Below are positions 2 to 60,069 of a stretch of DNA of 64,000 nucleotides, piece by piece. The DNA lies in assembly GCA_029974985.1 (NCBI GenBank), contig JARKQC010000227.1:1460-65459 (forward strand). The letters run 5' to 3'. Each line of letters starts with the position of its first letter. Position 1 is the first letter of the stretch. The notes under the pieces are model-generated. The model had not been told where the DNA came from, ran no database searches, and was given only the letters and a program-made list of their open reading frames with translations. The stretch comes from Bacteroidota bacterium. GTDB taxonomy: Bacteria > Bacteroidota > Ignavibacteria > Kapaibacteriales > UBA2268. The translations under genes were made by a program, and so were the position numbers.

Positions 2-19
2 ACAAGCAAGTAAGCTTGT
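2..19. repeat. Palindromic module C variant (ACAAGC-aagtaa-GCTTGT), first of five related copies in the window
   Basis: 6-bp perfect stem read directly. Sequence acaagcaagtaagcttgttatacc aligns with the 14451, 14523, 21625 and 60021 copies. Lies just downstream of the RSH gene stop. Confidence 0.5.
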
Positions 20-11450: not shown

Positions 11451-12035
11451 ATGAGATTATTATTAGTTGTTTTTTGTATCTCTATTGTTTTTAATTCTTG
11501 TAACAATAAATTAAACTCTCTTAATGATGATACTCTTGAAATATCAAGTATTAATGGAGAGTTATTATCATTTAATCAAAAAATAAGTGATGATGATTTC
11601 GATTATTATATATCTCTCGCTGGAACGGGTGATATAAGATTTTTAGATATTCGCGTTGGTAAAAATGGAGTTTTTATTGCTAAACTAAATGATGAAATCG
11701 AAGGTACGATTTATAATATATTTATTAGTGATTTGAATAAAAATTCAAAACCAGAAATTATTTTACTTATTAATTCTAATGATTTAAAAAATAATATTAC
11801 CATAATTGGATTTGAATTTAATAAAAATAGTTTTAAAAGATTTGATATGCCTCAATTAGAAGAGGATAATATTTATGGAATTATTAATTATGAGCATTTT
11901 CTTATTAAAGGCTCGCAAATTATTAGAGAATTTGATGTACTAAATCCGCAAAACAATTTAAATATTACAAAAAGGTTAATTTATAATTTAAACAATAATT
12001 TAGAATTAGTATTGTATAAACAAAATGATTTATAG
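11451..12035 (+). CDS. Hypothetical lipoprotein
   Basis: 194-aa ORF with lipoprotein-like signal (VFNSCNN). No recognisable domain. Confidence 0.45.
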   Translation: MRLLLVVFCISIVFNSCNNKLNSLNDDTLEISSINGELLSFNQKISDDDFDYYISLAGTGDIRFLDIRVGKNGVFIAKLNDEIEGTIYNIFISDLNKNSKPEIILLINSNDLKNNITIIGFEFNKNSFKRFDMPQLEEDNIYGIINYEHFLIKGSQIIREFDVLNPQNNLNITKRLIYNLNNNLELVLYKQNDL

Positions 12036-12056
12036 TAATATAATTCAATATTTTTT

Positions 12057-14357
12057 ATGATAAGATATTTACTATTTTTTTTAATTTTTACTTGCTATAA
12101 TGCTTATGGTAATTTTTATTTAGTTAAAATTAACATATCCTCACAAGAAGAATTTAATAAATTTGTTAATTCAAATATTGAATTTCAAAAAATTGATAAA
12201 AGCTCCATAATTGCAATACTTAACAATTCTGAATATGATAATTATATTAAAAATCAATTTAATTGTGAAATTTTAATTGATGATTTAGAAAAATATAACG
12301 AAAATTTACTACTGAAAAATTCCAATTTTATTCCCAAATTACAAAACTCTAATTATTTTCAATTAGGCTCGATGAGCGGATATTTCAAATTAGATGAAAT
12401 TTATTCTGAATTTGATAGAATGATAGAAAACTATCCAAATTATATTCGAAAGAGCATAATTTCGTATTCCTATGAAAATAGACCTATTTATGCTTATGAA
12501 GTTGGTTCGAATGATATTACTCAAAATTCAGAAATATTTTTTACTGGATTGATTCACTCGCGTGAGCCCGGAACAGTGTTTAGTTTGATTTATTATTTTT
12601 GGGATTTATTTTATAGATTTGATAAGGATGATTTACTTGCAAATTATATTCTAAATAATAAGAAAATATCATTTATTCCTGTTGTAAATCCCGATGGAGT
12701 CGTATTTAATGAAATTAATTACCCAAATGGCGGCGGACTATGGCGCAAAAATCGTAGAAAAACTTCTGATAGCACTTTTGGCACAGATTTAAATAGAAAT
12801 TTTGGTCCTTATTATGCTTGGAATTTCGATAATAATGGCTCATTAGATAATCCAATTTATGATACTTATCGCGGGAGTTCGCCTTTTTCCGAACCAGAAA
12901 CCGAGGCTATAAAGAATTTTGTAGAATCAAATCAATTTAAAATTGCAATCAATTTTCATACTTTCGGGAATTCCGTATTTTTCCCATTTTCATATCTTAA
13001 TACAGAATGCTCCGATTCGAATTGGTTTCGTGCATTTTTAGCGGATAATTATAATAATACACGATATATTTATGGCGTAGATTACGAAATCGTAAATTAT
13101 TCCACTCGCGGAAGTGCCGATGATTTTTTATATTTAGGAAATGATAAATTCTCTAAAATTTATTCTATGACCTGTGAAATCGGTAGCAATCAATTTGGAT
13201 TTTGGCCACCGGTTGACTCAATAATTAATTATGCTAAAAATTTAACAAGTTTTATTGATAATGTTATATTGTCCTCAGATAAAAATATTACACTTGCTTA
13301 TAAAGATTTAATTAAAATCGAGGATAAATTTTATATTAAATTTGAATTACAAAATATTGGGCTAAATGTAATCGAAAATACAGAATTTTTAATAAAAACA
13401 AATAATGAAAATGTGATTCTCCAAAATCCACATTTTATAATTAATAAATTAGAAAAAGCTGAACAATTTGAATATCTTTTGGAATTTAGCACAGTAAATT
13501 TTAAAAATGGAGAACCCGTAGAATTTGAAATATCCGCAAATTTGGATTATTCCAAAAATATAAAATTTAATTTAATATTATTTGAATACGATGAAATTGA
13601 TTTATTCGATAAAAAATTCATTCAAAATTGGGTTTTAGATAGTAATTGGACTTTTCATAATATTGATAATGAACTCGTTTTAATAAGTAATAAAGATGAA
13701 TTTTATAAGCCAGATTTAAATAGTTTTGCTAAAATAAAATTTGAGAATTTCGATAAAAAAATAAATCAATTTGCATTAAATTTCGAGCATAAATACGAAA
13801 TCGAAGCAAATTTTGATTTTGCCACAATTTTCTATGGCAATGAACAGTACGAATTTATAAATGATTTTTATGATAGTTATTTAATAAAAGGAATAAAAAA
13901 AGGAAAGCAGTCCGATAGTTTGTATGGTTTTCACGGAAATATTAAAAAATGGAAAAAGGAAAATTTATATTTTAAGCAAAATAATGATATAAATCAAGTA
14001 GCTTTTAATTTGAGAACGGATAATATTATTAATAAAAATGGTTGGAAAATTAAGAATCTCAAATTAAGAGCTTATCCTGATTATATTTCGAGTATAGACA
14101 ATTTTGAGAAAACAAATCAGCAATTAAAAATTGAATATTTCAAAGATAATTTTCTAAAAATTAATTCAAAAAATGATTTGTTTAAAGCAAATATTATAAT
14201 CTATAATTTGAATTGTGAAAAGCTATTTACTGCAAATTACGATATTTTTAATCAAGATAATTTTATTAAAATACCAGTTCTAAATACTGGTATTTATTTT
14301 ATTAATATAAATAATAATAATATTAATTTTTATGATTATTTTATAAAAATCGAATAA
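12057..14357 (+). CDS. M14 family zinc carboxypeptidase with T9SS C-terminal sorting domain
   Basis: 766-aa ORF with signal peptide. Zinc ligands HSRE (GLIHSREPG) and INFHTFGN, plus DLNRNFG. C-terminal ~70 aa resembles a Por secretion tail (NTGIYFININ..IKIE). Confidence 0.85.
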   Translation: MIRYLLFFLIFTCYNAYGNFYLVKINISSQEEFNKFVNSNIEFQKIDKSSIIAILNNSEYDNYIKNQFNCEILIDDLEKYNENLLLKNSNFIPKLQNSNYFQLGSMSGYFKLDEIYSEFDRMIENYPNYIRKSIISYSYENRPIYAYEVGSNDITQNSEIFFTGLIHSREPGTVFSLIYYFWDLFYRFDKDDLLANYILNNKKISFIPVVNPDGVVFNEINYPNGGGLWRKNRRKTSDSTFGTDLNRNFGPYYAWNFDNNGSLDNPIYDTYRGSSPFSEPETEAIKNFVESNQFKIAINFHTFGNSVFFPFSYLNTECSDSNWFRAFLADNYNNTRYIYGVDYEIVNYSTRGSADDFLYLGNDKFSKIYSMTCEIGSNQFGFWPPVDSIINYAKNLTSFIDNVILSSDKNITLAYKDLIKIEDKFYIKFELQNIGLNVIENTEFLIKTNNENVILQNPHFIINKLEKAEQFEYLLEFSTVNFKNGEPVEFEISANLDYSKNIKFNLILFEYDEIDLFDKKFIQNWVLDSNWTFHNIDNELVLISNKDEFYKPDLNSFAKIKFENFDKKINQFALNFEHKYEIEANFDFATIFYGNEQYEFINDFYDSYLIKGIKKGKQSDSLYGFHGNIKKWKKENLYFKQNNDINQVAFNLRTDNIINKNGWKIKNLKLRAYPDYISSIDNFEKTNQQLKIEYFKDNFLKINSKNDLFKANIIIYNLNCEKLFTANYDIFNQDNFIKIPVLNTGIYFININNNNINFYDYFIKIE

Positions 14358-14407
14358 TTTTTTTTAAAATCTAAGTAGTAAGGGCGGAGCTTATTCTTGA
14401 TAAAACA

Positions 14408-14429
14408 ACAATGGTGCATGCCCCATTGT
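14408..14429. repeat. Palindromic module B (CATG-core), imperfect: ACAATGGTGCATGCCCCATTGT
   Basis: Read directly; one arm mismatch. Aligns with the perfect copy at 14603 and degenerate copies at 38611 and 38664. Confidence 0.6.
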
Positions 14430-14450
14430 CTCCCGTCTTTTAATATTTTA

Positions 14451-14468
14451 ATAAGCAAGAATGCTTAT
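14451..14468. repeat. Palindromic module C: ATAAGCA-agaa-TGCTTAT
   Basis: 7-bp perfect stem with 4-nt loop. The core AAGCAAGAATGCTT is identical at 14523 and 21625. Confidence 0.65.
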
Positions 14469-14522
14469 CCTGCGAATTGGTAGGTTAGATATTTTGTCTG
14501 ACCCTAATAATTTAATATAAAC

Positions 14523-14536
14523 AAGCAAGAATGCTT
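14523..14536. repeat. Palindromic module C: AAGCA-agaa-TGCTT
   Basis: 14-nt core identical to the 14451 and 21625 copies. Flank acaagcaagaatgctta matches the 21623 copy. Confidence 0.6.
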
Positions 14537-14558
14537 AACCTACTACAATTTTTTTTCA

Positions 14559-14589
14559 GTTGTCCTACATTTCCGAAATGTAAGACAAC
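14559..14589. repeat. Palindromic module A: GTTGTCCTACATTT-ccg-AAATGTAAGACAAC
   Basis: 14-bp stem with one mismatch. Related to the perfect copy at 38567 and followed by the same linker TAGRAAACTGAG. Confidence 0.75.
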
Positions 14590-14602
14590 TAGGAAACTGA
14601 GG

Positions 14603-14622
14603 CAACGGGGCATGCCCCGTTG
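14603..14622. repeat. Palindromic module B, perfect 20-nt palindrome CAACGGGGCATGCCCCGTTG
   Basis: The sequence equals its own reverse complement. GC-rich island in an AT-rich spacer. Confidence 0.75.
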
Positions 14623-14638
14623 TCTATAAACTTCTCAA

Positions 14639-14663
14639 CTACACTTCAAAAGTGTAGGACAAC
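14639..14663. repeat. Module A partial copy: CTACACTT-caa-AAGTGTAG-GACAAC
   Basis: 8-bp stem. Right arm AAGTGTAGGACAAC is identical to the 38584-38597 arm. Left outer arm is degraded (tctcaa in place of gttgtc). Confidence 0.6.
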
Positions 14664-14703
14664 TTTGAAATATTTCATAAAAATAAATTAATTATTAGCA
14701 ATT

Positions 14704-15852
14704 TTAAACACTTTTAAGAATTTCCCTTGCAATTACAAGATTTTGAATTTCGGAAGTTCCCTCATAAATTTCAGTAACCTTTGCATCTCTCATCATTCTT
14801 TCAACTTGATATTCCCGTACATATCCATAGCCACCGTGAATTTGAACTGCTTCGCGAGTAACTTCATTAGCAATTGTCGAAGCAAATAATTTAGCCTCCG
14901 AAGATTCTCTAATATGGTCTAATTTATTATCGCGTAGCCAAGCGGCTTTATGAGTAAGAAGTCTTGCGGCACTAATTTTCATAGACATTTGTGCAAGTTT
15001 TGCTTGAATAAGCTGATGTTCAGCGATAGGTTTGCCCATAGTTTTCCGTTCTAAAGAATATTTTACAGCCGCTTCGAAGGCTCCTTGTGCAATGCCAACA
15101 GATTGAGCGGCAATACCGATTCTTCCTCCATTAAGACCACGCATAGCTATATAAAAACCTTCACCAACATTTCCAATTAAATGCTCTTCACTAACTTTAA
15201 CATTTGTTAATCCAATAGAAGTAGTCTCACTTGAGCGAAGCCCCATTTTGTCTTCTTTAATACCCGCCTCAAAGCCGGGGGTATCATTCGGAACAGCAAA
15301 ACAAGCAATTCCTTTGTGCTTTAATTCCTTATTAGTTTGAGCAAATACAATGCTCACATTTGAATGTTTTCCTGTAGTAATCCAATTTTTTGTACCATTT
15401 AATATCCAATCATTACCATCTTTTTCAGCTATAGTATTTTGTTGTCTTGCATCTGAGCCAGCTTCGGGTTCGCTCAAGCAGTATGCACCAAGATATTTAC
15501 CTTCTGCGAGCGGTCTTAAATAATTTTCTTTTAGAAAATCACTTCCATAAGTTTCTAAAATCCAGCAAACAAGGGAATTTTGTACTGATGCGACAACAGC
15601 AACGCTTGCGTCAACTTTTGCAAATTCTTCTATTGCGAGCACATAACTAACTACATCAAGCTCCGAGCCACCCCATTCTGAAGAAACCATCATTCCAAGG
15701 AAGCCAAGTTCTCCCATTTTTTTTAAAATTTCGCTTGGAAATTCAGAATTCATATCTCTTTGAATAGTTGTTGGTAAAATTTCTTCTTGAGCAAATTTTC
15801 GAGCCGCATCTTTAATTTGTAATTGAATCTCACTAAATTCAAATGATAGCAT
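14704..15852 (-). CDS. Acyl-CoA dehydrogenase (short/branched-chain type)
   Basis: 382-aa ORF. Motifs YCLSEPEAGSD, QIHGGYGY and catalytic-base region EIYEGTSEIQ. Confidence 0.92.
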   Translation of the reverse strand: MLSFEFSEIQLQIKDAARKFAQEEILPTTIQRDMNSEFPSEILKKMGELGFLGMMVSSEWGGSELDVVSYVLAIEEFAKVDASVAVVASVQNSLVCWILETYGSDFLKENYLRPLAEGKYLGAYCLSEPEAGSDARQQNTIAEKDGNDWILNGTKNWITTGKHSNVSIVFAQTNKELKHKGIACFAVPNDTPGFEAGIKEDKMGLRSSETTSIGLTNVKVSEEHLIGNVGEGFYIAMRGLNGGRIGIAAQSVGIAQGAFEAAVKYSLERKTMGKPIAEHQLIQAKLAQMSMKISAARLLTHKAAWLRDNKLDHIRESSEAKLFASTIANEVTREAVQIHGGYGYVREYQVERMMRDAKVTEIYEGTSEIQNLVIAREILKSV

Positions 15853-16046
15853 AATTTTTTTTCCTTATATTTAATTTCAAACATATATAAATATTAAAGT
15901 AACACTTTTTTTTTAATTATTTAATATAAAAATGAAACTTTTTTTAAATTTATTAGTCTTATTATTATTATTAAAGTACAACAAATAGATAATTTTTATA
16001 TTTTTACATAGATTTTTCACACAAATAATTTAGGAGTTATTGAAAA

Positions 16047-16760
16047 ATGACCAAATTTCTTTCTGCGTTGATTGTATTATTTACATTTAGTTTTGTAATA
16101 TCTAATGCACAACCCAAGCTCGAAATCGGTGGTGGAGATATGTATGATTGGGGTAATGTCAAACCTGAACAAGGCATATTACATGCTGAAATTAAATTAT
16201 GGAACAAGGGCAATAAAACGCTTGAAATTCTTAGAACAAAACCGGGCTGTGGCTGCACGACGGATTCCTTAGATATTAGAAATGTACCTCCTGGAAAATA
16301 TGCTACTTTAAAAGTTCACCTTAATATTTCTGGATATCAAGGCAGTACAATAAAAAGTGTTAGAATTTCAACAAATGACCCTGAAAAGCCCGAACAAAAC
16401 CTACTGCTTAAATGTAATGTTGTGGTGCCTATAGTTCAGACGCCAAAATATTTAGGATTTAATAAACTTATTGTTGGTGAGGAAGCTGTAACAAAATCTA
16501 TTATTACAAATAATACAGCAAAACCAATAAAAATTAAGAGTTTTGATATTAGAATGGCCTCCGAAGGTATTGATGCAGGTGAATTAAAGCACAATGTTCG
16601 CAGAAATATTGTTATTGAGCCACAAGCTAACTATACGATAGAGCTTAAATATACCCCTAAAAAAGCTGGTCGTTTGCAAGCATCGTTAAATATCGAAATT
16701 GATAGTAAAGAGCAGTCAACTATTGAATTTCCTATTTGGGGAAATATAGTTAATAAATAG
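16047..16760 (+). CDS. DUF1573 domain-containing secreted protein
   Basis: 237-aa ORF with signal peptide. Hallmark TKPGCGCT motif and two Ig-like halves. Confidence 0.8.
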   Translation: MTKFLSALIVLFTFSFVISNAQPKLEIGGGDMYDWGNVKPEQGILHAEIKLWNKGNKTLEILRTKPGCGCTTDSLDIRNVPPGKYATLKVHLNISGYQGSTIKSVRISTNDPEKPEQNLLLKCNVVVPIVQTPKYLGFNKLIVGEEAVTKSIITNNTAKPIKIKSFDIRMASEGIDAGELKHNVRRNIVIEPQANYTIELKYTPKKAGRLQASLNIEIDSKEQSTIEFPIWGNIVNK

Positions 16761-16773
16761 ATGTTTTAGATTT

Positions 16774-16823
16774 AAAAAAATACTCATCTTATCAATTCAT
16801 AAGAGAAGATGAGTATTTTTTTT
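16774..16823. terminator. Bidirectional rho-independent terminator between convergent genes
   Basis: ATACTCATCTT...AAGATGAGTAT 11-bp stem, flanked by an A-run upstream and a T-run downstream. Confidence 0.6.
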
Positions 16824-16832
16824 ATTAAGAAA

Positions 16833-17933
16833 TTAATCTAATAATTGTTTTAGTTCATCATCAAAATTATCAGATTTTTTATTATCAATTTTAATATTTT
16901 TAATAATAATATCTCCTTTCGATAACAAAAGATTGTAATCCTCATTTGTTAATTGTAAATATTGACTATTTTGCTCATCAAAAGTTGTTATAATTCCATT
17001 AAAAATATCAATTTTAATTATTTTATGAGTAACACTTTCGTATTCAATTATCGAGCCTATTGGGGGAAAATTTTCAAATGCACTTGCATAGGTATCATAT
17101 TCAAATTTAATACAACATTTCAGCCTACTGCAATTTCCACTTAATTTAGAAATATTATTTGATAATTGTTGTATTTTGGCATGTTCTAAGGTAACGTGTC
17201 CAAACGAATTCATAAAAGTAGTACAGCATAATTCTCGCCCGCAAGGACCAACGAAATTCCCTAAACGCTTAGTTTCCTCGCGCGAGCTAATTTGACGAAG
17301 TTCTATTCGTGCTTTGAAAATTTTTGCTAAATCTTTTACTAATTCTCTAAAATCAATTCTTTGTGGTGCAGTGAAATATATTGTAAGTCTTTGCCTATCG
17401 AATTGCCAAATTGCTTCTGTAATTTTCATATCGAAATTATATTTAGCAACGATTTCGCGAGTTTTTATCATTACATTATTTTCGTCTTTTAATTTTTTAT
17501 TAAAGACTTTAAGCTCTTCAAAATCTGGAATTCTAAGTAATTTTCGGCATTCACTCTGCTCGAAAATATATTTATTAATATTCGTAAAATCCTTAGCAAA
17601 TAATTCATTTACTCGCCCTAATTCGATTCCATACTCACTTTCAACAACGACAAAATCATCAATTTTTAAAAGTACATTATTTTGATTCTTAAAAATTGAC
17701 CTTAAATTACCTTTCAACAATACTTCAACATATTCCGATTCAACTTTTTTTGAGTATTTTTCTCCATTTTTTAGGAGAAAATCATAATTACTAAATCCCG
17801 ATTTAGGTAATGAGTTAATATATTCTAAATCATCTATATCAGATTCTATTTTTTTATCTATATATTCAAATTTACTTTGAAAAGGACTTGGCGAAGTATT
17901 ATTATCTATAAAATTAGATTTATATACATTCAT
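16833..17933 (-). CDS. ricT: PSP1/RicT (YaaT-like) domain protein
   Basis: 366-aa ORF. PSP1 core with Cys clusters GPCGRELCC and CSRLKCC. Conserved position directly downstream of holB. Confidence 0.8.
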   Translation of the reverse strand: MNVYKSNFIDNNTSPSPFQSKFEYIDKKIESDIDDLEYINSLPKSGFSNYDFLLKNGEKYSKKVESEYVEVLLKGNLRSIFKNQNNVLLKIDDFVVVESEYGIELGRVNELFAKDFTNINKYIFEQSECRKLLRIPDFEELKVFNKKLKDENNVMIKTREIVAKYNFDMKITEAIWQFDRQRLTIYFTAPQRIDFRELVKDLAKIFKARIELRQISSREETKRLGNFVGPCGRELCCTTFMNSFGHVTLEHAKIQQLSNNISKLSGNCSRLKCCIKFEYDTYASAFENFPPIGSIIEYESVTHKIIKIDIFNGIITTFDEQNSQYLQLTNEDYNLLLSKGDIIIKNIKIDNKKSDNFDDELKQLLD

Positions 17934-18033
17934 AACACATTCCGCAAGTATTTAACTTGTATAATTTATATTAAAGAACAATCTATATTAAATTTGTATT
18001 CATAAATATATGCAAAGTAAACATTTTTTAATA

Positions 18034-19179
18034 TTAATCAATAAAAATTCGGCGTAATTTAATAAAAAGTGATATTAATATTAAATTTATATTGACATTT
18101 CTATAAATCATTGTAATATAATTCTCAATTTCATTAATTGCTTTTGGTATATCTTTGTTCCCAAATCCTTTAAAAAACTTTTGAATGGTCTGTATGTCGT
18201 CAGAATTTATAATTAGTTCTGAATTTCCCGTAATTTTTATGATATTTACATCATTAAGCCAAAAAATTAGCATTTGCATAATCTTATTTATTTGGTTTTT
18301 ATCTTTGTCTTTAAGGAAGTTCTTTAAATTTTTTACAAGCTCTTCGCGATATTTAACTTTTTTAAGTGATATTCTTAATAAATTTACTATTTCATTTCGT
18401 AAAACTCTATTTTCCTCATCTAAAAAATCAAGAGCTTTGAGATATGAGCCTTGTGCAAATCGAGCCGCAATTTTCGCATCAATTTCATTTGAATTATTAT
18501 CTAAAATAAGTTTTCTGACAATTTTATTTTCATCTAAGGGTGAAAAATTAATTTGCTGACATCTTGAAATAATTGTTTGTAATAATGAGTCTGGTTTTGA
18601 TGATATTAATATAATTGTAATATTTTCCTGTGGTTCTTCCAAAGTTTTTAAAAAAGCATTTTCAGCCTCTATGTTCATTTCATCTGCTTTTAATACAATT
18701 ACAAAACGTCTTTTATCGTTAAAAGAACTTAAAGATAATTTTTGCTTCACATCTCTTATACTTGAAATTTTAATTTGTGTAGCATTTGGTATTTTTAAAG
18801 GTAAATAATGATTTTTTGCTTTGTTTTCGATTTCATCTTTTATAATTTCAATTTGCTCTGAAGACAATTTATCATAAGCACTATCACCTTTTGTATCGCT
18901 TGATTTTCCTGTTGGTAAGGAAAAAATCAATTCGAGATTTGGATGTGCTAGATTATCTATTGATATACAGTTATGACATTTATCGCAAGAATCAATAAAT
19001 CCATCATCAATTATTGGCTTTTCGCAATTACATACTTTTGCAAATTGTATTGCTAAAGCATCTTTACCAATACCCTCTATTCCAATAAAACAATAAGCAT
19101 GGCTAATCCTATTATTGATTATTGAATTTTGCAATATTTTTTTAATTTTATCGTGTCCTATTATTTGGTACCAAGACAT
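18034..19179 (-). CDS. holB: DNA polymerase III subunit delta-prime
   Basis: 381-aa ORF. AAA-like GIEGIGKD, Cys module CDKCHNC, SRC motif IISRCQQINF. holB-ricT synteny. Confidence 0.85.
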   Translation of the reverse strand: MSWYQIIGHDKIKKILQNSIINNRISHAYCFIGIEGIGKDALAIQFAKVCNCEKPIIDDGFIDSCDKCHNCISIDNLAHPNLELIFSLPTGKSSDTKGDSAYDKLSSEQIEIIKDEIENKAKNHYLPLKIPNATQIKISSIRDVKQKLSLSSFNDKRRFVIVLKADEMNIEAENAFLKTLEEPQENITIILISSKPDSLLQTIISRCQQINFSPLDENKIVRKLILDNNSNEIDAKIAARFAQGSYLKALDFLDEENRVLRNEIVNLLRISLKKVKYREELVKNLKNFLKDKDKNQINKIMQMLIFWLNDVNIIKITGNSELIINSDDIQTIQKFFKGFGNKDIPKAINEIENYITMIYRNVNINLILISLFIKLRRIFID

Positions 19180-19266
19180 AATTTAAGTTTTCTTTTCAAT
19201 ATACATTTAATAAATTTAAAAATAGCAAATTATATGTTCAATTCAAATAAAATTTTAGAGTAAATT

Positions 19267-21510
19267 ATGGGAAAAAAATCTTCTGCAACAGTAAATCCGA
19301 AAAAATCTATAAAAGAGCCAGAAAAATTAACTGTATCCGATCCACAAGTAAGTGAAAAAAATACCAAGGCTTACGAAAGACTCATACAAATTGATACAAT
19401 TCAGCCCGAAGTTATTGGCTCGCGTTGTCATCATGGGAAAGGTGATGATTGCTCGGTTGACCGAACTAAATTAGATAGATCGCAAGCACCTCATATTACA
19501 TTAGACCTCGATAAAGACCATTTAATGAAAGCATTAAAAAATATGATGAAAGCAAGATTTACCGACGACAAGCATTTAGCACTTGTTAAGCAAGGTCGGT
19601 CGTTTTTCCATATTGGTTGCTCTGGACACGAAGCCACACAAACTGCAATTGCTTTCGCTTTAGAATCTGGTAAAGATTGGGGCTGGACTTATTATAGAGA
19701 TATGGCTTTTGCTTTTGCATTAGGCTATTCAATAGAAGATTATTTCTTATTAGCATTTGGAAAAGATGAAGACCCTGCAACGGGTGGAAGACAAATGCCC
19801 GGACATTTAGGTCATCCCAAATTTAATTTACCTACTCAATCTTCGCCAACGGGTACTCAATTTTTAAATGCTGTCGGTTGCTCTATGGCATCAAGAAAAA
19901 ATGGAACTGATGAGATAACTTATGTTTCATCTGGCGAAGGAACAACAAGCCAAGGCGAATTTTATGAAGCAGTGAATTGGGCAACAAAAGATGGATTGCC
20001 AACTTTATTCCACATTCAAGATAATGGATATGCTATTTCTGTTCCGCGTGCTGACCAATCTATGGGTTCGAGCGTTGTACATTCATTTTGTTGTTATCCG
20101 GGCTTATTGATGAAAGAATATGACGGAACTGATTATTTTGAATCTTTAAAAGCCGCTCGGGACGCAGTAAAATATATTCGCGAAGGGCGAGGACCTGCAT
20201 TATTACACGCTGTTGTAGAAAGATTAATTTCTCATTCATCATCAGATGACCAAAGAAAATATCGTTCTGAAGAAGAGCTTGCAAATGCTTCTGCTAAAAA
20301 AGATTGTATTAAAATTTTATCTAATTATCTAATTGAGTATAAAATTGCAACTGAAGATGAAATCGAAAATCTTAAAGTTACAGTAAAACAAGAAATTGAT
20401 AAAGCTGTTGAATGGGCTGAATCACGTCCCGAACCAAAAGTTGAAAATACTTTAAAACCGCTTTATGCACCAAAAGAAACTCACGATTTACCTTATGCAG
20501 TTTCTGAACCAAGCTCTGGAAATCAAATTGTATTAGTTGATTCGATTAATCACGCACTTTTCGAAGAAATGAAAAGAAATGATAAAATGTTGATTTTTGG
20601 TGAAGATATTGCTGACCCTAAAGGCGGTGTGTTTACTGCGACAAGAGGATTAACAAATGAATATGGTAGTAAACGCGTATTTAACTCGCCACTTGCTGAG
20701 GCTTCGATTGTTGGAGTTGCACTTGGGCTTGCAGTTCGCGGTTTTAAACCCGTAATCGAAATTCAATTTGGTGATTATATTTGGCCCGCATTTATGCAAT
20801 ATAAAAATGAGGTTGCCTCTATGCGATTCCGCTCTAATGGTGGATTTAAAGCGCCCGTAGTTACTCGTGTAGCTGTCGGTGGTTATATTCACGGTGGATT
20901 GTGTCATTCTCAAAATATTGAAAGTATTTTTTCTCATATACCGGGATTATTAATTGCTTATCCAAGTAATGCAGCTGATGCTAAAGGTTTGCTTAAAACT
21001 GCAATTCGCTTAGACGACCCCGTAATTTTCTGCGAACACAAGGCACTATATCGCTCGCCTTATGCCAGAGCTATCGAGCCAGACGAAAATTATTTAATTC
21101 CATTTGGAAAAGCTAAAATTGTTAAAGAAGGCAACGATGCAGTAATTGTAACTTATGGCATGGGTGTTAAAGATTCTATAAATGCTGTTAAAAAATATGA
21201 AAAAGAAACGGGAAAATCTATAAAAATTATTGATTTACGTACTATAAATCCTTGGGATAAAGAATTAGTACTCGAATCTGTAAAAGATTGCGGACGCGTT
21301 CTTATTGTTCACGAAGATACTCTTACTACGGGATTTGGTGCCGAAGTTTCCGCTACAATATCACAATATGCTTTCAATTGGCTTGATGCCCCAGTAATGA
21401 GACTTGCCGCTAAAGATTCACATATTCCTTATGCACCTGTTTACGAAGAAGATGTATTGCCAAATGAACATAAAGTATATGATAGTCTTGTAGAATTAAT
21501 GAATTTTTAA
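19267..21510 (+). CDS. Fused 2-oxoacid (branched-chain alpha-keto acid-type) dehydrogenase E1 component, alpha/beta subunits
   Basis: 747-aa ORF. TPP-binding region SSGEGTTSQGEFYEAVNWA in the N-terminal half. Transketolase-like pyrimidine-binding beta half (FNSPLAEASIVGVALGLA). Confidence 0.88.
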   Translation: MGKKSSATVNPKKSIKEPEKLTVSDPQVSEKNTKAYERLIQIDTIQPEVIGSRCHHGKGDDCSVDRTKLDRSQAPHITLDLDKDHLMKALKNMMKARFTDDKHLALVKQGRSFFHIGCSGHEATQTAIAFALESGKDWGWTYYRDMAFAFALGYSIEDYFLLAFGKDEDPATGGRQMPGHLGHPKFNLPTQSSPTGTQFLNAVGCSMASRKNGTDEITYVSSGEGTTSQGEFYEAVNWATKDGLPTLFHIQDNGYAISVPRADQSMGSSVVHSFCCYPGLLMKEYDGTDYFESLKAARDAVKYIREGRGPALLHAVVERLISHSSSDDQRKYRSEEELANASAKKDCIKILSNYLIEYKIATEDEIENLKVTVKQEIDKAVEWAESRPEPKVENTLKPLYAPKETHDLPYAVSEPSSGNQIVLVDSINHALFEEMKRNDKMLIFGEDIADPKGGVFTATRGLTNEYGSKRVFNSPLAEASIVGVALGLAVRGFKPVIEIQFGDYIWPAFMQYKNEVASMRFRSNGGFKAPVVTRVAVGGYIHGGLCHSQNIESIFSHIPGLLIAYPSNAADAKGLLKTAIRLDDPVIFCEHKALYRSPYARAIEPDENYLIPFGKAKIVKEGNDAVIVTYGMGVKDSINAVKKYEKETGKSIKIIDLRTINPWDKELVLESVKDCGRVLIVHEDTLTTGFGAEVSATISQYAFNWLDAPVMRLAAKDSHIPYAPVYEEDVLPNEHKVYDSLVELMNF

Positions 21511-21535
21511 AATTTAATATTTATAATTTATTTAG

Positions 21536-21568
21536 ATGTCCAACATTATATTAAAAGATGTTGGACAT
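21536..21568. repeat. Palindromic module D: ATGTCCAACAT-11 nt-ATGTTGGACAT, followed by a T-run (probable terminator of the E1 gene)
   Basis: 11-bp perfect stem, then TTTTTT. Same arm sequence as the 21662 and 59942 copies. Confidence 0.75.
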
Positions 21569-21584
21569 TTTTTAATATAGATAT

Positions 21585-21608
21585 ATCTTCTGTGTCGCTC
21601 AGAAAGAT
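21585..21608. repeat. Module E-like hairpin ATCTTCTG-tgtcgct-CAGAAAGAT
   Basis: 8 bp with a 1-nt bulge. The cgctcagaaaga segment aligns with gcgttcagaatga at 59997-60008. Confidence 0.4.
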
Positions 21609-21624
21609 GCAAATCATTTTTGAC

Positions 21625-21638
21625 AAGCAAGAATGCTT
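21625..21638. repeat. Palindromic module C: AAGCA-agaa-TGCTT
   Basis: Core identical to the 14451 and 14523 copies. The gacaagcaaga flank matches the 60021 copy. Confidence 0.6.
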
Positions 21639-21661
21639 ATACAAGAAATTTTTAAAAATTT

Positions 21662-21696
21662 AGATGTCCAACACCTCCCAAAAATGCTGGACATCT
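21662..21696. repeat. Palindromic module D: AGATGTCCAACA-11 nt-TGCTGGACATCT
   Basis: 12-bp stem with one A/C mismatch, 12 nt downstream of the icd stop on the minus strand. Confidence 0.7.
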
Positions 21697-21707
21697 TTAA
21701 TCGCATA

Positions 21708-38554: not shown

Positions 38555-38566
38555 TGTTTTGTTTAA

Positions 38567-38597
38567 GTTGTCCTACACTTTTAAAGTGTAGGACAAC
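38567..38597. repeat. Palindromic module A, perfect: GTTGTCCTACACTT-tta-AAGTGTAGGACAAC
   Basis: 14-bp perfect stem with a 3-nt loop. Followed by the linker TAGAAAAACTGAG, as in the 14559 copy. Confidence 0.8.
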
Positions 38598-38610
38598 TAG
38601 AAAAACTGAG

Positions 38611-38625
38611 ACAATGGGGTAACCA
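38611..38625. repeat. Module B half-copy (ACAATGGGGTAACC)
   Basis: The left arm caatgggg matches module B. The right arm is missing, but the position after the conserved linker is the same as at 14603. Confidence 0.4.
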
Positions 38626-38663
38626 AATTGCTATCAATTGATATTTAATGGTGAAGCTTATAA

Positions 38664-38684
38664 ACAATGGGTTATGCCCTAATT
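38664..38684. repeat. Module B degenerate copy (ACAATGGGTTATGCCCTAATT)
   Basis: About 16 of 21 positions match the 14408 copy by eye; pairing is partly lost. Confidence 0.35.
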
Positions 38685-38813
38685 TATCAGTCTTTTATTT
38701 CTAGACATTTAATAATGCTTATCTTACCAATTTTACACTTTCAACTATATAATTGATTCCAATTTTCTTTTATAATAACAAATATGAATTAACACACATA
38801 AAAAATATTATTG

Positions 38814-38852
38814 ATAAAAAAAACCTTCCAAAAAATAGTAATTTGGAAGGTT
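38814..38852 (-). terminator. Rho-independent terminator of rpoC
   Basis: Minus strand: AACCTTCCAAA-9 nt-TTTGGAAGGTT followed by TTTTTTTT, about 25 nt after the rpoC stop. Confidence 0.7.
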
Positions 38853-38877
38853 AATTATTTTTTATAAAAATTAATTT

Positions 38878-50510: not shown

Positions 50511-50583
50511 CACGAGTGGCAGGACTCGAACCCGCAACCAATGGTTTTGGAGACCACTACTCTACCAATTGAGCTACACTCGT
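50511..50583 (-). tRNA. tRNA-Trp (anticodon CCA)
   Basis: Manual cloverleaf: ACGAGTG/CACTCGT acceptor stem, anticodon stem GTGGT/ACCAT with loop CTCCAAA, T-loop TTCGAGT. No encoded CCA end. Confidence 0.9.
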
Positions 50584-50603
50584 ATAAAACATTTTTCAAA
50601 ACG

Positions 50604-50676
<73 letters not shown>

Positions 50677-50775
50677 ATTGCATTTGTTGTGATATTTTGC
50701 TATAAAAAAGCTATAAGCACAATCAAAAATCATTTGATTATGCAAAAAACATACAAATGCTGATTGACTCATCAG

Positions 50776-50848
50776 AGCGGGAGACGAGACTCGAACCCGC
50801 AACCCTCAGCTTGGAAGGCTGATGCTCTACCAATTGAGCTACTCCCGC
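50776..50848 (-). tRNA. tRNA-Gly (anticodon TCC)
   Basis: Manual cloverleaf: GCGGGAG/CTCCCGC acceptor stem, anticodon stem TCAGC/GCTGA with loop CTTCCAA, T-loop TTCGAGT. Confidence 0.9.
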
Positions 50849-50875
50849 ATTGATTGTCAAAGTCCTTATTTTATG

Positions 50876-50958
50876 TGGGCAGAGAAGGATTCGAACCTCC
50901 GTAGGGAATTCCCAGCAGATTTACAGTCTGCCCCGTTTGGCCGCTTCGGTATCTGCCC
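50876..50958 (-). tRNA. tRNA-Tyr (anticodon GTA), long variable arm
   Basis: GGGCAGA/TCTGCCC acceptor stem, anticodon stem GCAGA/TCTGC with loop CTGTAAA, variable arm TGGGAATTCCCTAC. Closely parallels the bacterial tRNA-Tyr consensus. Confidence 0.9.
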
Positions 50959-59863: not shown

Positions 59864-59918
59864 ATTCAAATTTTATATTCGAGAATATATTTATTAATTT
59901 GTACGATTAAAATGATTA

Positions 59919-60008
59919 TCATTCTGAGCTTTTTCAGATTTGATGTCCAACATTTTTGGAAGTGTTGGACATCTTACTTATACAGATTTTTCACTGCGTT
60001 CAGAATGA
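59919..60008. repeat. Module E outer stem (TCATTCTGA ... TCAGAATGA) enclosing a module D hairpin
   Basis: 9-bp long-range inverted repeat (59919-59927 with 60000-60008) read directly. Confidence 0.5.
59942..59973. repeat. Palindromic module D: GATGTCCAACA-10 nt-TGTTGGACATC
   Basis: 11-bp perfect stem with the same arms as the 21536 and 21662 copies. Confidence 0.75.
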
Positions 60009-60020
60009 CAAAAAGGAAAC

Positions 60021-60040
60021 GACAAGCAAGATTCTTGTTC
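60021..60040. repeat. Module C variant: GACAAGCAAGATTCTTGTTC
   Basis: ACAAG...CTTGT stem. The left half gacaagcaaga is identical to the 21623 copy. The right arm is changed yet still self-complementary. Confidence 0.5.
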
Positions 60041-60069
60041 ACCTTATGAAATTTAATAAACAAAATAAA

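Follow-up and report, generated by a model that had tools for sequence, protein, structure and literature searches.

What accounts for the chain of short palindromes that fills the spacer between two convergently transcribed genes in an uncultured member of the Kapabacteria? Are these hairpins transcription terminators, pieces of a transposon, protein-binding or small-RNA sites, or members of a mosaic of repetitive extragenic palindromes? We examined the spacer within its whole stretch of 64,000 nt of DNA (the window), and compared it with sequences from other strains and from related genomes. Open reading frames and Pfam matches agree with the original prediction in placing a 346-nt spacer (14358-14703) between the convergent genes for an M14 peptidase (+ strand) and an acyl-CoA dehydrogenase (ACAD; - strand). 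The predicted folding of this spacer is far stronger than that of shuffled sequences, whether it is folded as DNA on the + strand (z = -5.8) or as RNA on the - strand (z = -6.3).

All of the modules that had been predicted in the spacer were located there by reading of the sequence, and they form a mosaic in the order B-C-hairpin-C-A-B-A'. The mosaic opens with an imperfect copy of module B (ACAATGGTGCATGCCCCATTGT, 14408-14429, with the palindrome at 14409-14428), followed on the + strand at 14430-14471 by an extension that begins TCTCCCGTCTTTTAAT and leads from B into the first copy of module C (AAGCAAGAATGCTTA at 14453-14467, with the tail TCCT). A 70-nt segment (14472-14541, + strand) comes next and contains the hairpin GGTTAGA/TCTGACC (14483-14503), which is real and single-copy, together with the second copy of module C (14523-14537). 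Module A is present at 14558-14590 as a GTTG variant, AGTTGTCCTACA-TTTCCGAAA-TGTAAGACAACT, with one C.A mismatch that is a perfect pair in L124, a sequence from the same species. It is followed at 14591-14622 (+ strand) by the linker AGGAAACTGAGG and the perfect 20-nt palindrome of module B, CAACGGGGCATGCCCCGTTG (14603-14622). The last element, at 14639-14664, is a partial module A with a truncated left arm, which reads CTACACTT-CAAA-AGTGTAG and then GACAACT.

The modules also recur elsewhere, as had been proposed, in three further convergent spacers and at the edge of the window. One of these spacers holds a GATG/CCA variant of module A (21534-21570) that lies 24 nt past the stop codon of an E1 dehydrogenase gene and has a T-run behind it, a third copy of module C (21624-21639, + strand), and another module A (21662-21696) whose distance to the stop codon of IDH is 12 nt and which has a terminator-like score on the - strand. 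Another carries, 12 nt past the stop of a Por_Secre_tail protein gene, module A (38566-38598), a linker and a degenerate module B (38612-38630), together spanning 38566-38630 on the + strand, and then a second degenerate module B (38665-38684) with the extension and a remnant of module C. By direct reading this latter unit (38665-38728, + strand) is homologous to 14405-14470, its part at 38685-38728 corresponding to the extension and first module C of the target spacer. The same region contains the native bidirectional terminator of rpoC, AACCTTCCAAA...TTTGGAAGGTT (38822-38852), which is outside the repeat family. In the remaining spacer, module A (59941-59974) lies within an inverted pair of degenerate arms of CGTC-type REPs, TTATCATTCTGA at 59916-59927 and TCAGAATGACAA at 60000-60011 (the whole unit spanning 59916-60011), and is followed at 60022-60045 (+ strand) by a variant of module C, GACAAGCAAGATTCTTGTTCACC, with its core at 60024-60041. 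The copy at the window edge is a further variant of module C, ACAAGCAAGTAAGCTTGT (2-19, + strand); it does lie downstream of a gene, namely 3' of a RelA/SpoT gene, and coincides with the left breakpoint of an indel of 7.4 kb between strains.

Chance is not the explanation for the repeated palindromic modules in the spacer. When a shuffled background was used for comparison, the arm pattern of module A, GWTGTCCWACA with at most one mismatch, gave 12 matches in the window against 1.9 expected, and none of 100 shuffles reached 12. The exact 15-mer of module C was found three times (14453, 14523 and 21625), and both module B and a stretch of 27-28 nt running from module A through the linker into B, common to 14584-14610 and 38592-38619, were found twice, where none was expected in each case. 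The repetition of this A-linker-B stretch shows that the modules belong to longer units, and the asymmetric units of the window all share one orientation. We also considered whether a 24-kb inversion with respect to the related locus L127 is bounded by the two spacers with the A-linker-B arrangement (14358-14703 and 38555-38877), and the gene order fits; because convergent gene junctions are natural synteny breakpoints, we retain the inversion as an observation only.

The six copies of module A in the 64 kb are all intergenic, and modules were present in 4 of the 6 convergent spacers of the window versus 0 of the 32 other spacers. Both convergent spacers that lack them have ordinary terminators consisting of an A-tract, a hairpin and a T-tract. 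For loci outside the window, we counted 43 hairpins in 95 convergent spacers, 40 in 343 tandem spacers and 7 in 82 divergent spacers.

Module A is a hairpin with a 15-bp stem, AG[A/T]TGTCC[T/A]ACA...TGT[A/T]GGACA[T/A]CT, complete copies of which occur in the window at 14558-14590, 21534-21570, 21662-21696, 38566-38598 and 59941-59974. A genome scan revealed that this hairpin A family is multi-copy in Kapaibacterium, Ignavibacteria and Chloroherpeton, and also in Chitinophagaceae, Cyclobacteriaceae (Cytophagales) and other low-GC MAGs. In 90 of the 109 family copies the geometry is the same, with a stem of 15 bp and a loop of 3 nt. At the variable W position 105 of the 109 are complementary (65 T:A and 40 A:T), and the polarity CCW...WGG is reversed in none of them. 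The tetranucleotide GTAG, replaced by GTTG in the A:T subfamily, is internal to the right arm (TGTAGGACA), and the 5' foot carries neither GT[AG]G nor CGTC. The family is essentially missing from viral contigs, where only 1 of 43 matches was of family type.

Modules B and C were seen in the species of the window alone, with no link to any enzyme, and appear to be lineage-specific. Matches to the 15-mer of module C in viral contigs were lone and at chance level, and the module B palindrome was found in three viral contigs of higher GC content that are apparently unrelated. We noted four independent Logan contigs that all begin within module B, at position 14617 of the window; this suggests an assembly break induced by the repeat or by the palindrome and is not proof of copy number. 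The species is carried by samples such as SRR23724719, SRR18053989 and ERR2683122, and ENA ERZ15185028 NODE_105 (187 kb) belongs to it as well.

The original prediction that the module sequences belong to no described family is upheld by the sources that we searched. Rfam models, applied at gathering and at permissive thresholds, matched only four tRNAs in the window, with nothing near threshold in 14330-14720, so that the modules match no Rfam family. A full-text search of the literature with the hairpin sequence returned unrelated primers only, and a search combining Kapabacteria with repeats returned nothing relevant. The modules are also absent from the manually identified REPs in the supplementary table of Quentin 2018 (PMC6006769), which holds no TGTCCTACA hairpin.

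Comparison with relatives and strains addresses whether the modules are resident features of these spacers or later arrivals. In relatives with 87-90% ACAD identity hairpin A is absent, and behind the same ACAD gene there are plain terminators. The rpoC terminator at 38822-38852 is conserved in L127, whose spacer carries none of the modules, and it persists beside the modules in the window. Strains differ as well: alignment with the window shows that L124 is without the 70-nt segment at 14472-14541, the junction of this indel falling inside the direct repeat formed by the two C modules, and the 7.4-kb indel has one end at the centre of a module C and the other at the centre of a hairpin A copy. 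Because the modules are missing from these relatives, the rpoC terminator has been retained and strains differ by indels, we read the modules as probable additions and not as conserved terminators. The 70-nt indel, the module-free relatives and the 7.4-kb indel together represent the presence/absence polymorphism that is expected of REPs.

A Y1 gene with the same hairpin at both ends is a hallmark of a REP-RAYT system, and hairpin A occurs in this arrangement. In genomes of Cytophagales/Chitinophagaceae type it is found on both sides of a Y1 (PF01797) gene, within about 10-45 nt of the gene ends, in four loci (L087, L088, L098 and L133), and on one side in two others (L096 and L132). L133 and L132 come from an unbiased metagenome sample that was chosen protein first, in which just the two closest among the best 80 homologues carry hairpin A, while the other four loci were chosen for bearing the hairpin. 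The hairpin-flanked gene is a single ORF encoding a Y1 HUH transposase of ~190 aa. Its sole NCBIfam match was REP_Tyr_transpos (NF047646), at 71 and 62 bits, with no match to IS200; these scores place the proteins, as RAYT-like, below the equivalog cut-off (71 bits versus 80). The sole match in the PDB was 4ER8 (E. coli TnpAREP), and JGI labels the homologues 'REP element-mobilizing transposase RayT'. Remoter homologues (40-55% identity) have other short palindromes beside them, as expected if a REP co-varies with its RAYT.

The window itself encodes no transposase, in agreement with the claim that it lacks RAYT and tnpA genes, and no RAYT was found in ~30 kb of further sequence from the same species (L124, L212 and L213). 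TBLASTN with four RAYT queries gave no match in the Kapabacteria and Ignavibacteria loci bearing hairpin A, which were covered as 8-kb chunks per genome. In a protein search for the RAYT of the window's lineage the 120 best matches were all Cytophagales-like, and the metagenome scan likewise returned no RAYT of this lineage among its best 80.

We consider it likely that REP-type palindromes have formed a BIME-like cluster in this spacer of a low-GC Kapabacteria genome, with the RAYT of module A putatively encoded elsewhere in the genome. REP/BIME elements are well known, and the spacer provides a new example of them in uncultured Kapabacteria, not a new kind of element. The distribution of module A is REP-like, in that its copies lie outside genes, favour convergent spacers, cluster with other palindromes and are polymorphic among strains. 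The original prediction of a mosaic of REP/BIME type thus stands for module A, whose hairpin flanks Y1 genes, while the PATE/MITE origin that it offered as an alternative is less favoured. Module A would be a REP doublet, that is, two inverted 15-nt half-sites folding into one 15-bp stem with a loop of ~3 nt, and its cognate enzyme would be a REP-associated tyrosine (Y1, HUH) transposase of ~190 aa. [quoted passage not shown] Copies would persist where they are harmless, just past stop codons and chiefly between convergent genes, and there they may accumulate with B, C and degenerate CGTC-type REPs and be reshuffled via recombination between copies. Once settled, they are probably transcribed as hairpins in 3' UTRs, and some may aid termination or shield the 3' end of the mRNA.

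Far more tentatively, and with some doubt on our part, hairpin A might represent a REP lineage of Bacteroidota/Ignavibacteria/Kapabacteria/Chlorobi that is deeply conserved and as yet undescribed; in it GTAG would be buried in an obligate 15-bp 'doublet' stem, the RAYT clade would fall between subclasses 2.6 and 2.1, and cleavage or processing at the hairpin apex would drive kilobase-scale indels. Cleavage at the apex is suggested because both ends of the 7.4-kb indel fall in module centres. RAYT subclass 2.1 is not known to have a REP.

The same observations can be set against other explanations. If the hairpins were intrinsic bidirectional terminators or stabilisers of RNA 3' ends, alike in sequence through functional constraint and with no mobile element or transposase involved, their location would be readily understood, since every module cluster is at gene 3' ends and hairpin A is usually the module closest to the stop codon (12-39 nt). 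Three module hairpins pass a simple terminator scan, and a T-tract lies behind 40% of family copies versus 20% of background positions. Nevertheless, 60% of copies have no T-tract, the native terminators of this genome are A-tract/hairpin/T-tract sites of unique sequence, that of rpoC is conserved apart from the modules and beside them, and relatives end the same genes with none of the modules. We regard this explanation as unlikely, and it does not account for 15-bp stems that are nearly the same in different bacterial classes, nor for their presence on both sides of Y1 genes. It is also improbable, in our view, that a dimeric protein with a nucleoid, topological or regulatory role binds the palindromes, or that they are small-RNA genes, with the Y1 link incidental; indeed we give this the least credence, as barely plausible. 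The 15-bp half-sites around a variable 3-nt centre do resemble an operator, and the region has strong predicted structure, but the palindromes are strongly depleted in divergent, promoter-bearing spacers, have no Rfam match, vary in presence between strains and close relatives, and lie beside RAYT genes in six loci.

An origin of the modules as pieces of non-autonomous transposons (MITEs or PATEs derived from IS200/IS605), with defined ends and an IS-encoded transposase in place of a domesticated RAYT, draws on the longer shared units, A-linker-B together with B-extension-C, the latter about 70-90 nt long. The single orientation of the asymmetric units in the window could reflect strand-specific insertion of IS200/IS605 type, and the enzyme found with the hairpins, a Y1 HUH protein, is from the same superfamily. 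Yet no terminal inverted repeats or target-site duplications were seen around any unit, and the modules vary in their combinations and also occur alone, so that there is no element of fixed length. Furthermore, the Y1 genes are single ORFs between identical palindromes, with no tnpB in the loci that were fully read, and their products are matched by the model for REP-type transposases but not by that for IS200. We doubt this origin strongly and prefer to interpret the spacer as a REP-type, BIME-like cluster.

This interpretation extends REP/RAYT-type palindromic elements to Kapabacteria. REPs are usually genus-specific, and one hairpin family common to several classes of the Bacteroidota-Chlorobi group runs against that view. 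The clusters mark breaks in short-read assemblies, as with the four Logan contigs that end in module B, as well as strain indels and changes in gene order, and may be of use in MAG curation and strain typing. Although no new kind of system is revealed, the GTAG-in-stem geometry provides a test case for substrate recognition by RAYTs.

Among known systems, the closest resemblance is to REP/REPIN-RAYT systems (E. coli REP with TnpAREP, PDB 4ER8; Pseudomonas REPINs), which likewise involve many copies of a short palindrome outside genes, doublets in inverted orientation that form one long hairpin, compensatory changes in the stem, a bias towards 3' ends and convergent spacers and, as seen in relatives, a Y1 HUH gene with the palindrome on its flanks. 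Module A departs from them in that GTAG is buried in the stem and not placed at the 5' foot (GTTG in one subfamily), in its long, nearly perfect 15-bp stem with a 3-nt loop, and in spanning Kapabacteria, Ignavibacteria, Chlorobi-like and Bacteroidia genomes, unlike usual REPs. The clustering of different palindromic units with recurring linker motifs at intergenic 3' ends resembles enterobacterial BIMEs, and A-linker-B and B-extension-C recur in different orders in two spacers; this is a likeness of architecture only, as the sequences are unrelated and there is no regular Y/Z alternation. PATEs and MITEs derived from IS200/IS605 are also small, non-coding, hairpin-rich repeats with an enzyme of the HUH Y1 superfamily, but the modules have no fixed boundaries, TIRs or TSDs, and no IS200-type transposase or TnpB was seen.

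Di Nocera et al. (2013, PMC3733652) reported CGTC-tagged REPs from Bacteroidetes and Chlorobi. Two features fit this type, namely the arm pair TCATTCTGA/TCAGAATGA that encloses hairpin A at 59916-60011 and the clear GTCATTCTGAAC...GTTCAGAATG units that are interleaved with hairpin A in OW818654.1; the arms in the window are degenerate, however, and modules A, B and C have no CGTC tag. For RAYT subclass 2.6 (Bertels group 5), found mostly in Bacteroidetes, Quentin et al. (2018, PMC6006769) reported flanking 'atypical secondary structures', and the structure of hairpin A is likewise atypical. The hairpin-flanked proteins differ from this subclass in their HuH motif, NHFH, and W motif, FQ, which, compared as motifs, resemble subclass 2.1. 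In common with subclass 2.6 they have the Y motif YIHQNP, are encoded by Bacteroidota and are about 190 aa long, and non-canonical hairpins lie beside their genes as well as elsewhere in the genome.

The 346-nt spacer at 14358-14703, between convergent genes for an M14 peptidase (12057-14357, + strand) and an acyl-CoA dehydrogenase (ACAD; 14704-15852, - strand) delimited from ORFs and Pfam, is best interpreted as a BIME-like cluster of REP-type elements. In order it holds an imperfect copy of the CATG-core palindrome, module B (14408-14429), an extension with the 15-mer module C (14453-14467), a single-copy hairpin (14483-14503), a second module C (14523-14537), module A, a hairpin with a 15-bp stem (14558-14590), then after a 12-nt linker a perfect 20-nt module B palindrome (14603-14622), and finally a partial module A (14639-14664). 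The predicted chain of palindromic modules is real. The window has a GC content of about 29%, and the spacer folds far more stably than shuffled sequence (z = -5.8 as DNA, -6.3 as RNA). An Rfam search returned only four tRNAs in the window and no hit approaching threshold in the spacer, placing the module sequences outside the families described there, and Pfam annotation of the window found no transposase, agreeing with the original prediction that RAYT (REP-associated tyrosine, or Y1, transposase) and tnpA genes are absent from it. We noted that the four tRNA genes are clustered at 50511-50958 (- strand), directly upstream of the nusG/ribosomal-protein/rpoBC cluster (- strand).

As had also been predicted, the modules recur elsewhere in the window, at 21534-21696, 38566-38728, 59916-60045 and 2-19, and their repetition is far above chance. 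The module A arm, with up to one mismatch, had 12 matches against 1.9 expected, a count reached by none of 100 shuffles; the module B pattern (2 matches), the exact module C 15-mer (3) and a 27-28 nt A-linker-B stretch (2) were each expected 0 times. A-linker-B homology is common to 14549-14625 and 38557-38635, and B-extension-C homology to 14397-14471 and 38650-38728; these two longer homologies indicate that the modules are parts of larger, recombining units. The copy of module A at 59941-59974 sits inside a degenerate inverted pair of CGTC-type REP arms. All asymmetric units lie on the + strand, namely five C copies or variants (3, 14453, 14523, 21625 and 60024), two A-linker-B units (14584 and 38592) and two B-extension-C units, which may reflect a replication-strand bias, the counts being small.

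Location is biased. Of the 38 internal spacers defined by ORFs of at least 100 aa, six are convergent, and four of these carry modules; the other 32, tandem or divergent, carry none. This agrees with the original observation that the clusters lie between convergent genes, and the copy at 2-19 lies 3' of RelA. Were the four module-bearing spacers placed at random, all would be convergent with a probability of 15/73815 (about 2e-4). The two convergent spacers without modules are short and contain ordinary A-tract/hairpin/T-tract terminators. A terminator role for the module hairpins is at most partial: three of them (B 14407-14430, A 21662-21696 and A 59942-59973) passed a simple terminator scan, and a T-tract follows 40% of copies of the hairpin-A family (module A and its counterparts in other genomes) versus 20% of background positions.

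The modules are also polymorphic within the species, which is represented by a 187-kb ENA/NCBI contig (L124, L212; ACAD identity 99%) and by locus L213. L124 lacks exactly one 70-nt C-to-C period (window 14472-14541); the junction falls within the direct repeat of C. The spacer 3' of RelA varies by strain, L213 having the window's arrangement. The match between L213 (3832-3925) and L212 breaks off midway through module C (window 2-19), the left breakpoint, and is taken up again midway through a hairpin-A copy, the right breakpoint, where L212 retains only the right arm, TATAGGACATCT; between the breakpoints L212 has 7.4 kb (11894-19300; an ABC-transporter/TetR cluster) and L213 has 71 nt, and the two strains have identical RelA. 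A cobalamin riboswitch (RF00174, 72 bits) was seen at L213 4023-4224, just outside the window's left edge. Four independent Logan short-read contigs (L001-L004) with an identical ACAD gene all stop at window position 14617, inside the perfect module B palindrome, a pattern suggesting that a repeat or palindrome interrupted the assembly.

ACAD homologues carry the source names Candidatus Kapaibacterium or Kapabacteria. In five relatives (L127-L131; ACAD identity 87-90%, GC 0.36-0.37, 11-21 kb each) the same ACAD gene is followed by plain terminators, and no hairpin A was found in these loci; the gene downstream is rpoC in L127 and L128 and the S20 gene in L129-L131. The entire ACAD/rpoC spacer of L127 is 76 nt and is the counterpart of the ~90 nt nearest rpoC in window 38555-38877, including the terminator at 38822-38852. 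Because it matches this part only, we regard the modules as additions next to a native terminator that was kept. Compared with L127 (90% ACAD identity), three of the four spacers with modules (14358-14703, 21511-21707 and 38555-38877) show an altered gene order. Since convergent junctions are natural synteny breakpoints, no causal role for the modules is read from these changes. In L127 ACAD lies next to rpoC, consistent with an inversion of ~24 kb whose ends are the two A-linker-B spacers.

A scan for TGTCCWACA-N(4-16)-TGTWGGACA, in which each species was represented by one genome, gave at least 119 stretches; the pattern fixed the hairpin-A core, and the conserved flanks, the geometry and the covariation were observed independently of it. 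Among the matches listed, those of high GC were unrelated singletons and those of low GC a single family, AGATGTCC[T/A]ACA[T/C]CT-NNN-AG[A/G]TGT[A/T]GGACATCT, with several copies per genome in Kapaibacterium, Ignavibacteria, Chloroherpeton, Chitinophagaceae (including Danxiaibacter), Cyclobacteriaceae, Cytophagales, the 4.5-Mb metagenome chromosome OW818654.1 and several low-GC MAGs labelled Hyphomicrobiales. Exactly 9 nt separate the 9-mer cores in 90 of the 109 family copies listed, giving a 15-bp stem and 3-nt loop; complementarity holds at the variable position in 105 (65 T:A, 40 A:T), and none reverses the polarity of CCW...WGG. Copies per spacer were higher in convergent (43/95) than in tandem (40/343) or divergent (7/82) spacers. 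OW818654.1 has 136-nt tandem units in which hairpin A alternates with clear CGTC-type REPs, GTCATTCTGAAC...GTTCAGAATG; these units (L116 1460-1900; L093 1600-1950) also hold ATTCCGCATCAAGTGCGGAAT hairpins. Danxiaibacter flavus has three variant hairpins, AAAAAACGTGTCCTACACTTGCAAGTGTAGGACACGTTTTTT, 245-297 nt apart at a single locus (L010 3438-4005). Modules B and C were not found outside the window's species among 214 loci searched. Three IMG/VR viral contigs (L378-L381; ~47% GC, one with two copies) together hold four copies of the 20-nt module B palindrome, CAAYGGGGCATGCCCCRTTG, against a rough chance expectation of about 0.2; they probably have no relationship to the window.

The ORFs of hairpin-bearing loci were screened by motif for Y1 genes and then annotated with Pfam. 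In L087, L088 and L098, genes for ~190-aa Y1_Tnp proteins have a hairpin-A copy on either side, and in L096 such a gene adjoins one copy; hairpin and ORF end are about 10-45 nt apart. The sole NCBIfam match of these proteins is REP_Tyr_transpos (71 and 62 bits, short of the 80-bit equivalog cut-off), with none to the IS200 model; their sole PDB match is E. coli TnpAREP (4ER8), and homologues bear the JGI name 'REP element-mobilizing transposase RayT'. A protein-first metagenome sample (best 80 loci) is free of the selection bias of this hairpin-selected set. The two homologues closest in that sample, with identities of 62% or more, have hairpin A on both sides (L133) or one side (L132), and homologues at 40-55% identity have other short palindromes, for example GGTGTCAGACACC and AGGTATGCCATACCT; palindromes changing with protein divergence are a prediction of REP-RAYT co-variation. 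RAYT-like genes of a Tichowtungia MAG (L064 3700-4550) lie next to TGTCCTACA...TGTAGGAC hairpins. There, CCTGTCCTACAAATGAAATTGTAGGAC stands on both sides of the RAYT gene, followed by arrays of GTAGGACGCGCTTCC... REPs, and the GTAGGAC tag of these canonical GTAG REP arrays makes a hairpin-A-like palindrome. A second RAYT type, similar to Quentin subclass 2.4 (L053 7474-7920 and L112 7300-7960; 148 aa, motifs NHIH and YIENNP), has canonical REP arrays, GTAGGGGCAATTCATGAATTGCCCC, at its flanks and a REP-like palindrome within its own ORF; the GGGGCA...TGCCCC core at these loci loosely resembles module B. No RAYT was found in about 95 kb of sequence from the window's species, and no enzyme link for modules B and C.

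The REP reading draws on the observed repetition, structure-preserving variation, location bias, absence at the relatives' corresponding sites, strain polymorphism at the modules and hairpin-flanked RAYT genes in relatives, and the REP/BIME interpretation originally offered thus gains support. Module A would be a REP doublet moved in trans by a RAYT whose gene lies elsewhere. From what is established for TnpAREP and the IS200/IS605 enzymes, its hairpin would be recognized and cleaved as a single strand; the modules would also be transcribed into hairpins of the 3' UTR, where they may influence termination or RNA stability.

Canonical REPs have a GTAG foot, which module A lacks. REPs of Chlorobi and Bacteroidetes were reported to be CGTC-tagged rather than GTAG-tagged, and REP dimers were also seen nested in other palindromes (Di Nocera et al. 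2013, PMC3733652). In the supplementary REP table of Quentin et al. 2018 (PMC6006769) there is no entry for the TGTCCTACA hairpin, the nearest to hairpin A being Emticicia GTAGGACAGGTT... of subclass 2.7. RAYT subclass 2.6 of these authors (Bertels group 5) is mostly from Bacteroidetes, with a Y motif YIH[QN]NP, a mean length of 179 aa and flanks with 'atypical secondary structures' without a GT[AG]G foot (PMC6006769). By motif, the hairpin-A Y1 proteins are like subclass 2.6 in YIHQNP and like subclass 2.1 in NHFH and FQ, and hairpin A itself is an atypical, unusually widely shared hairpin for a REP-type element.
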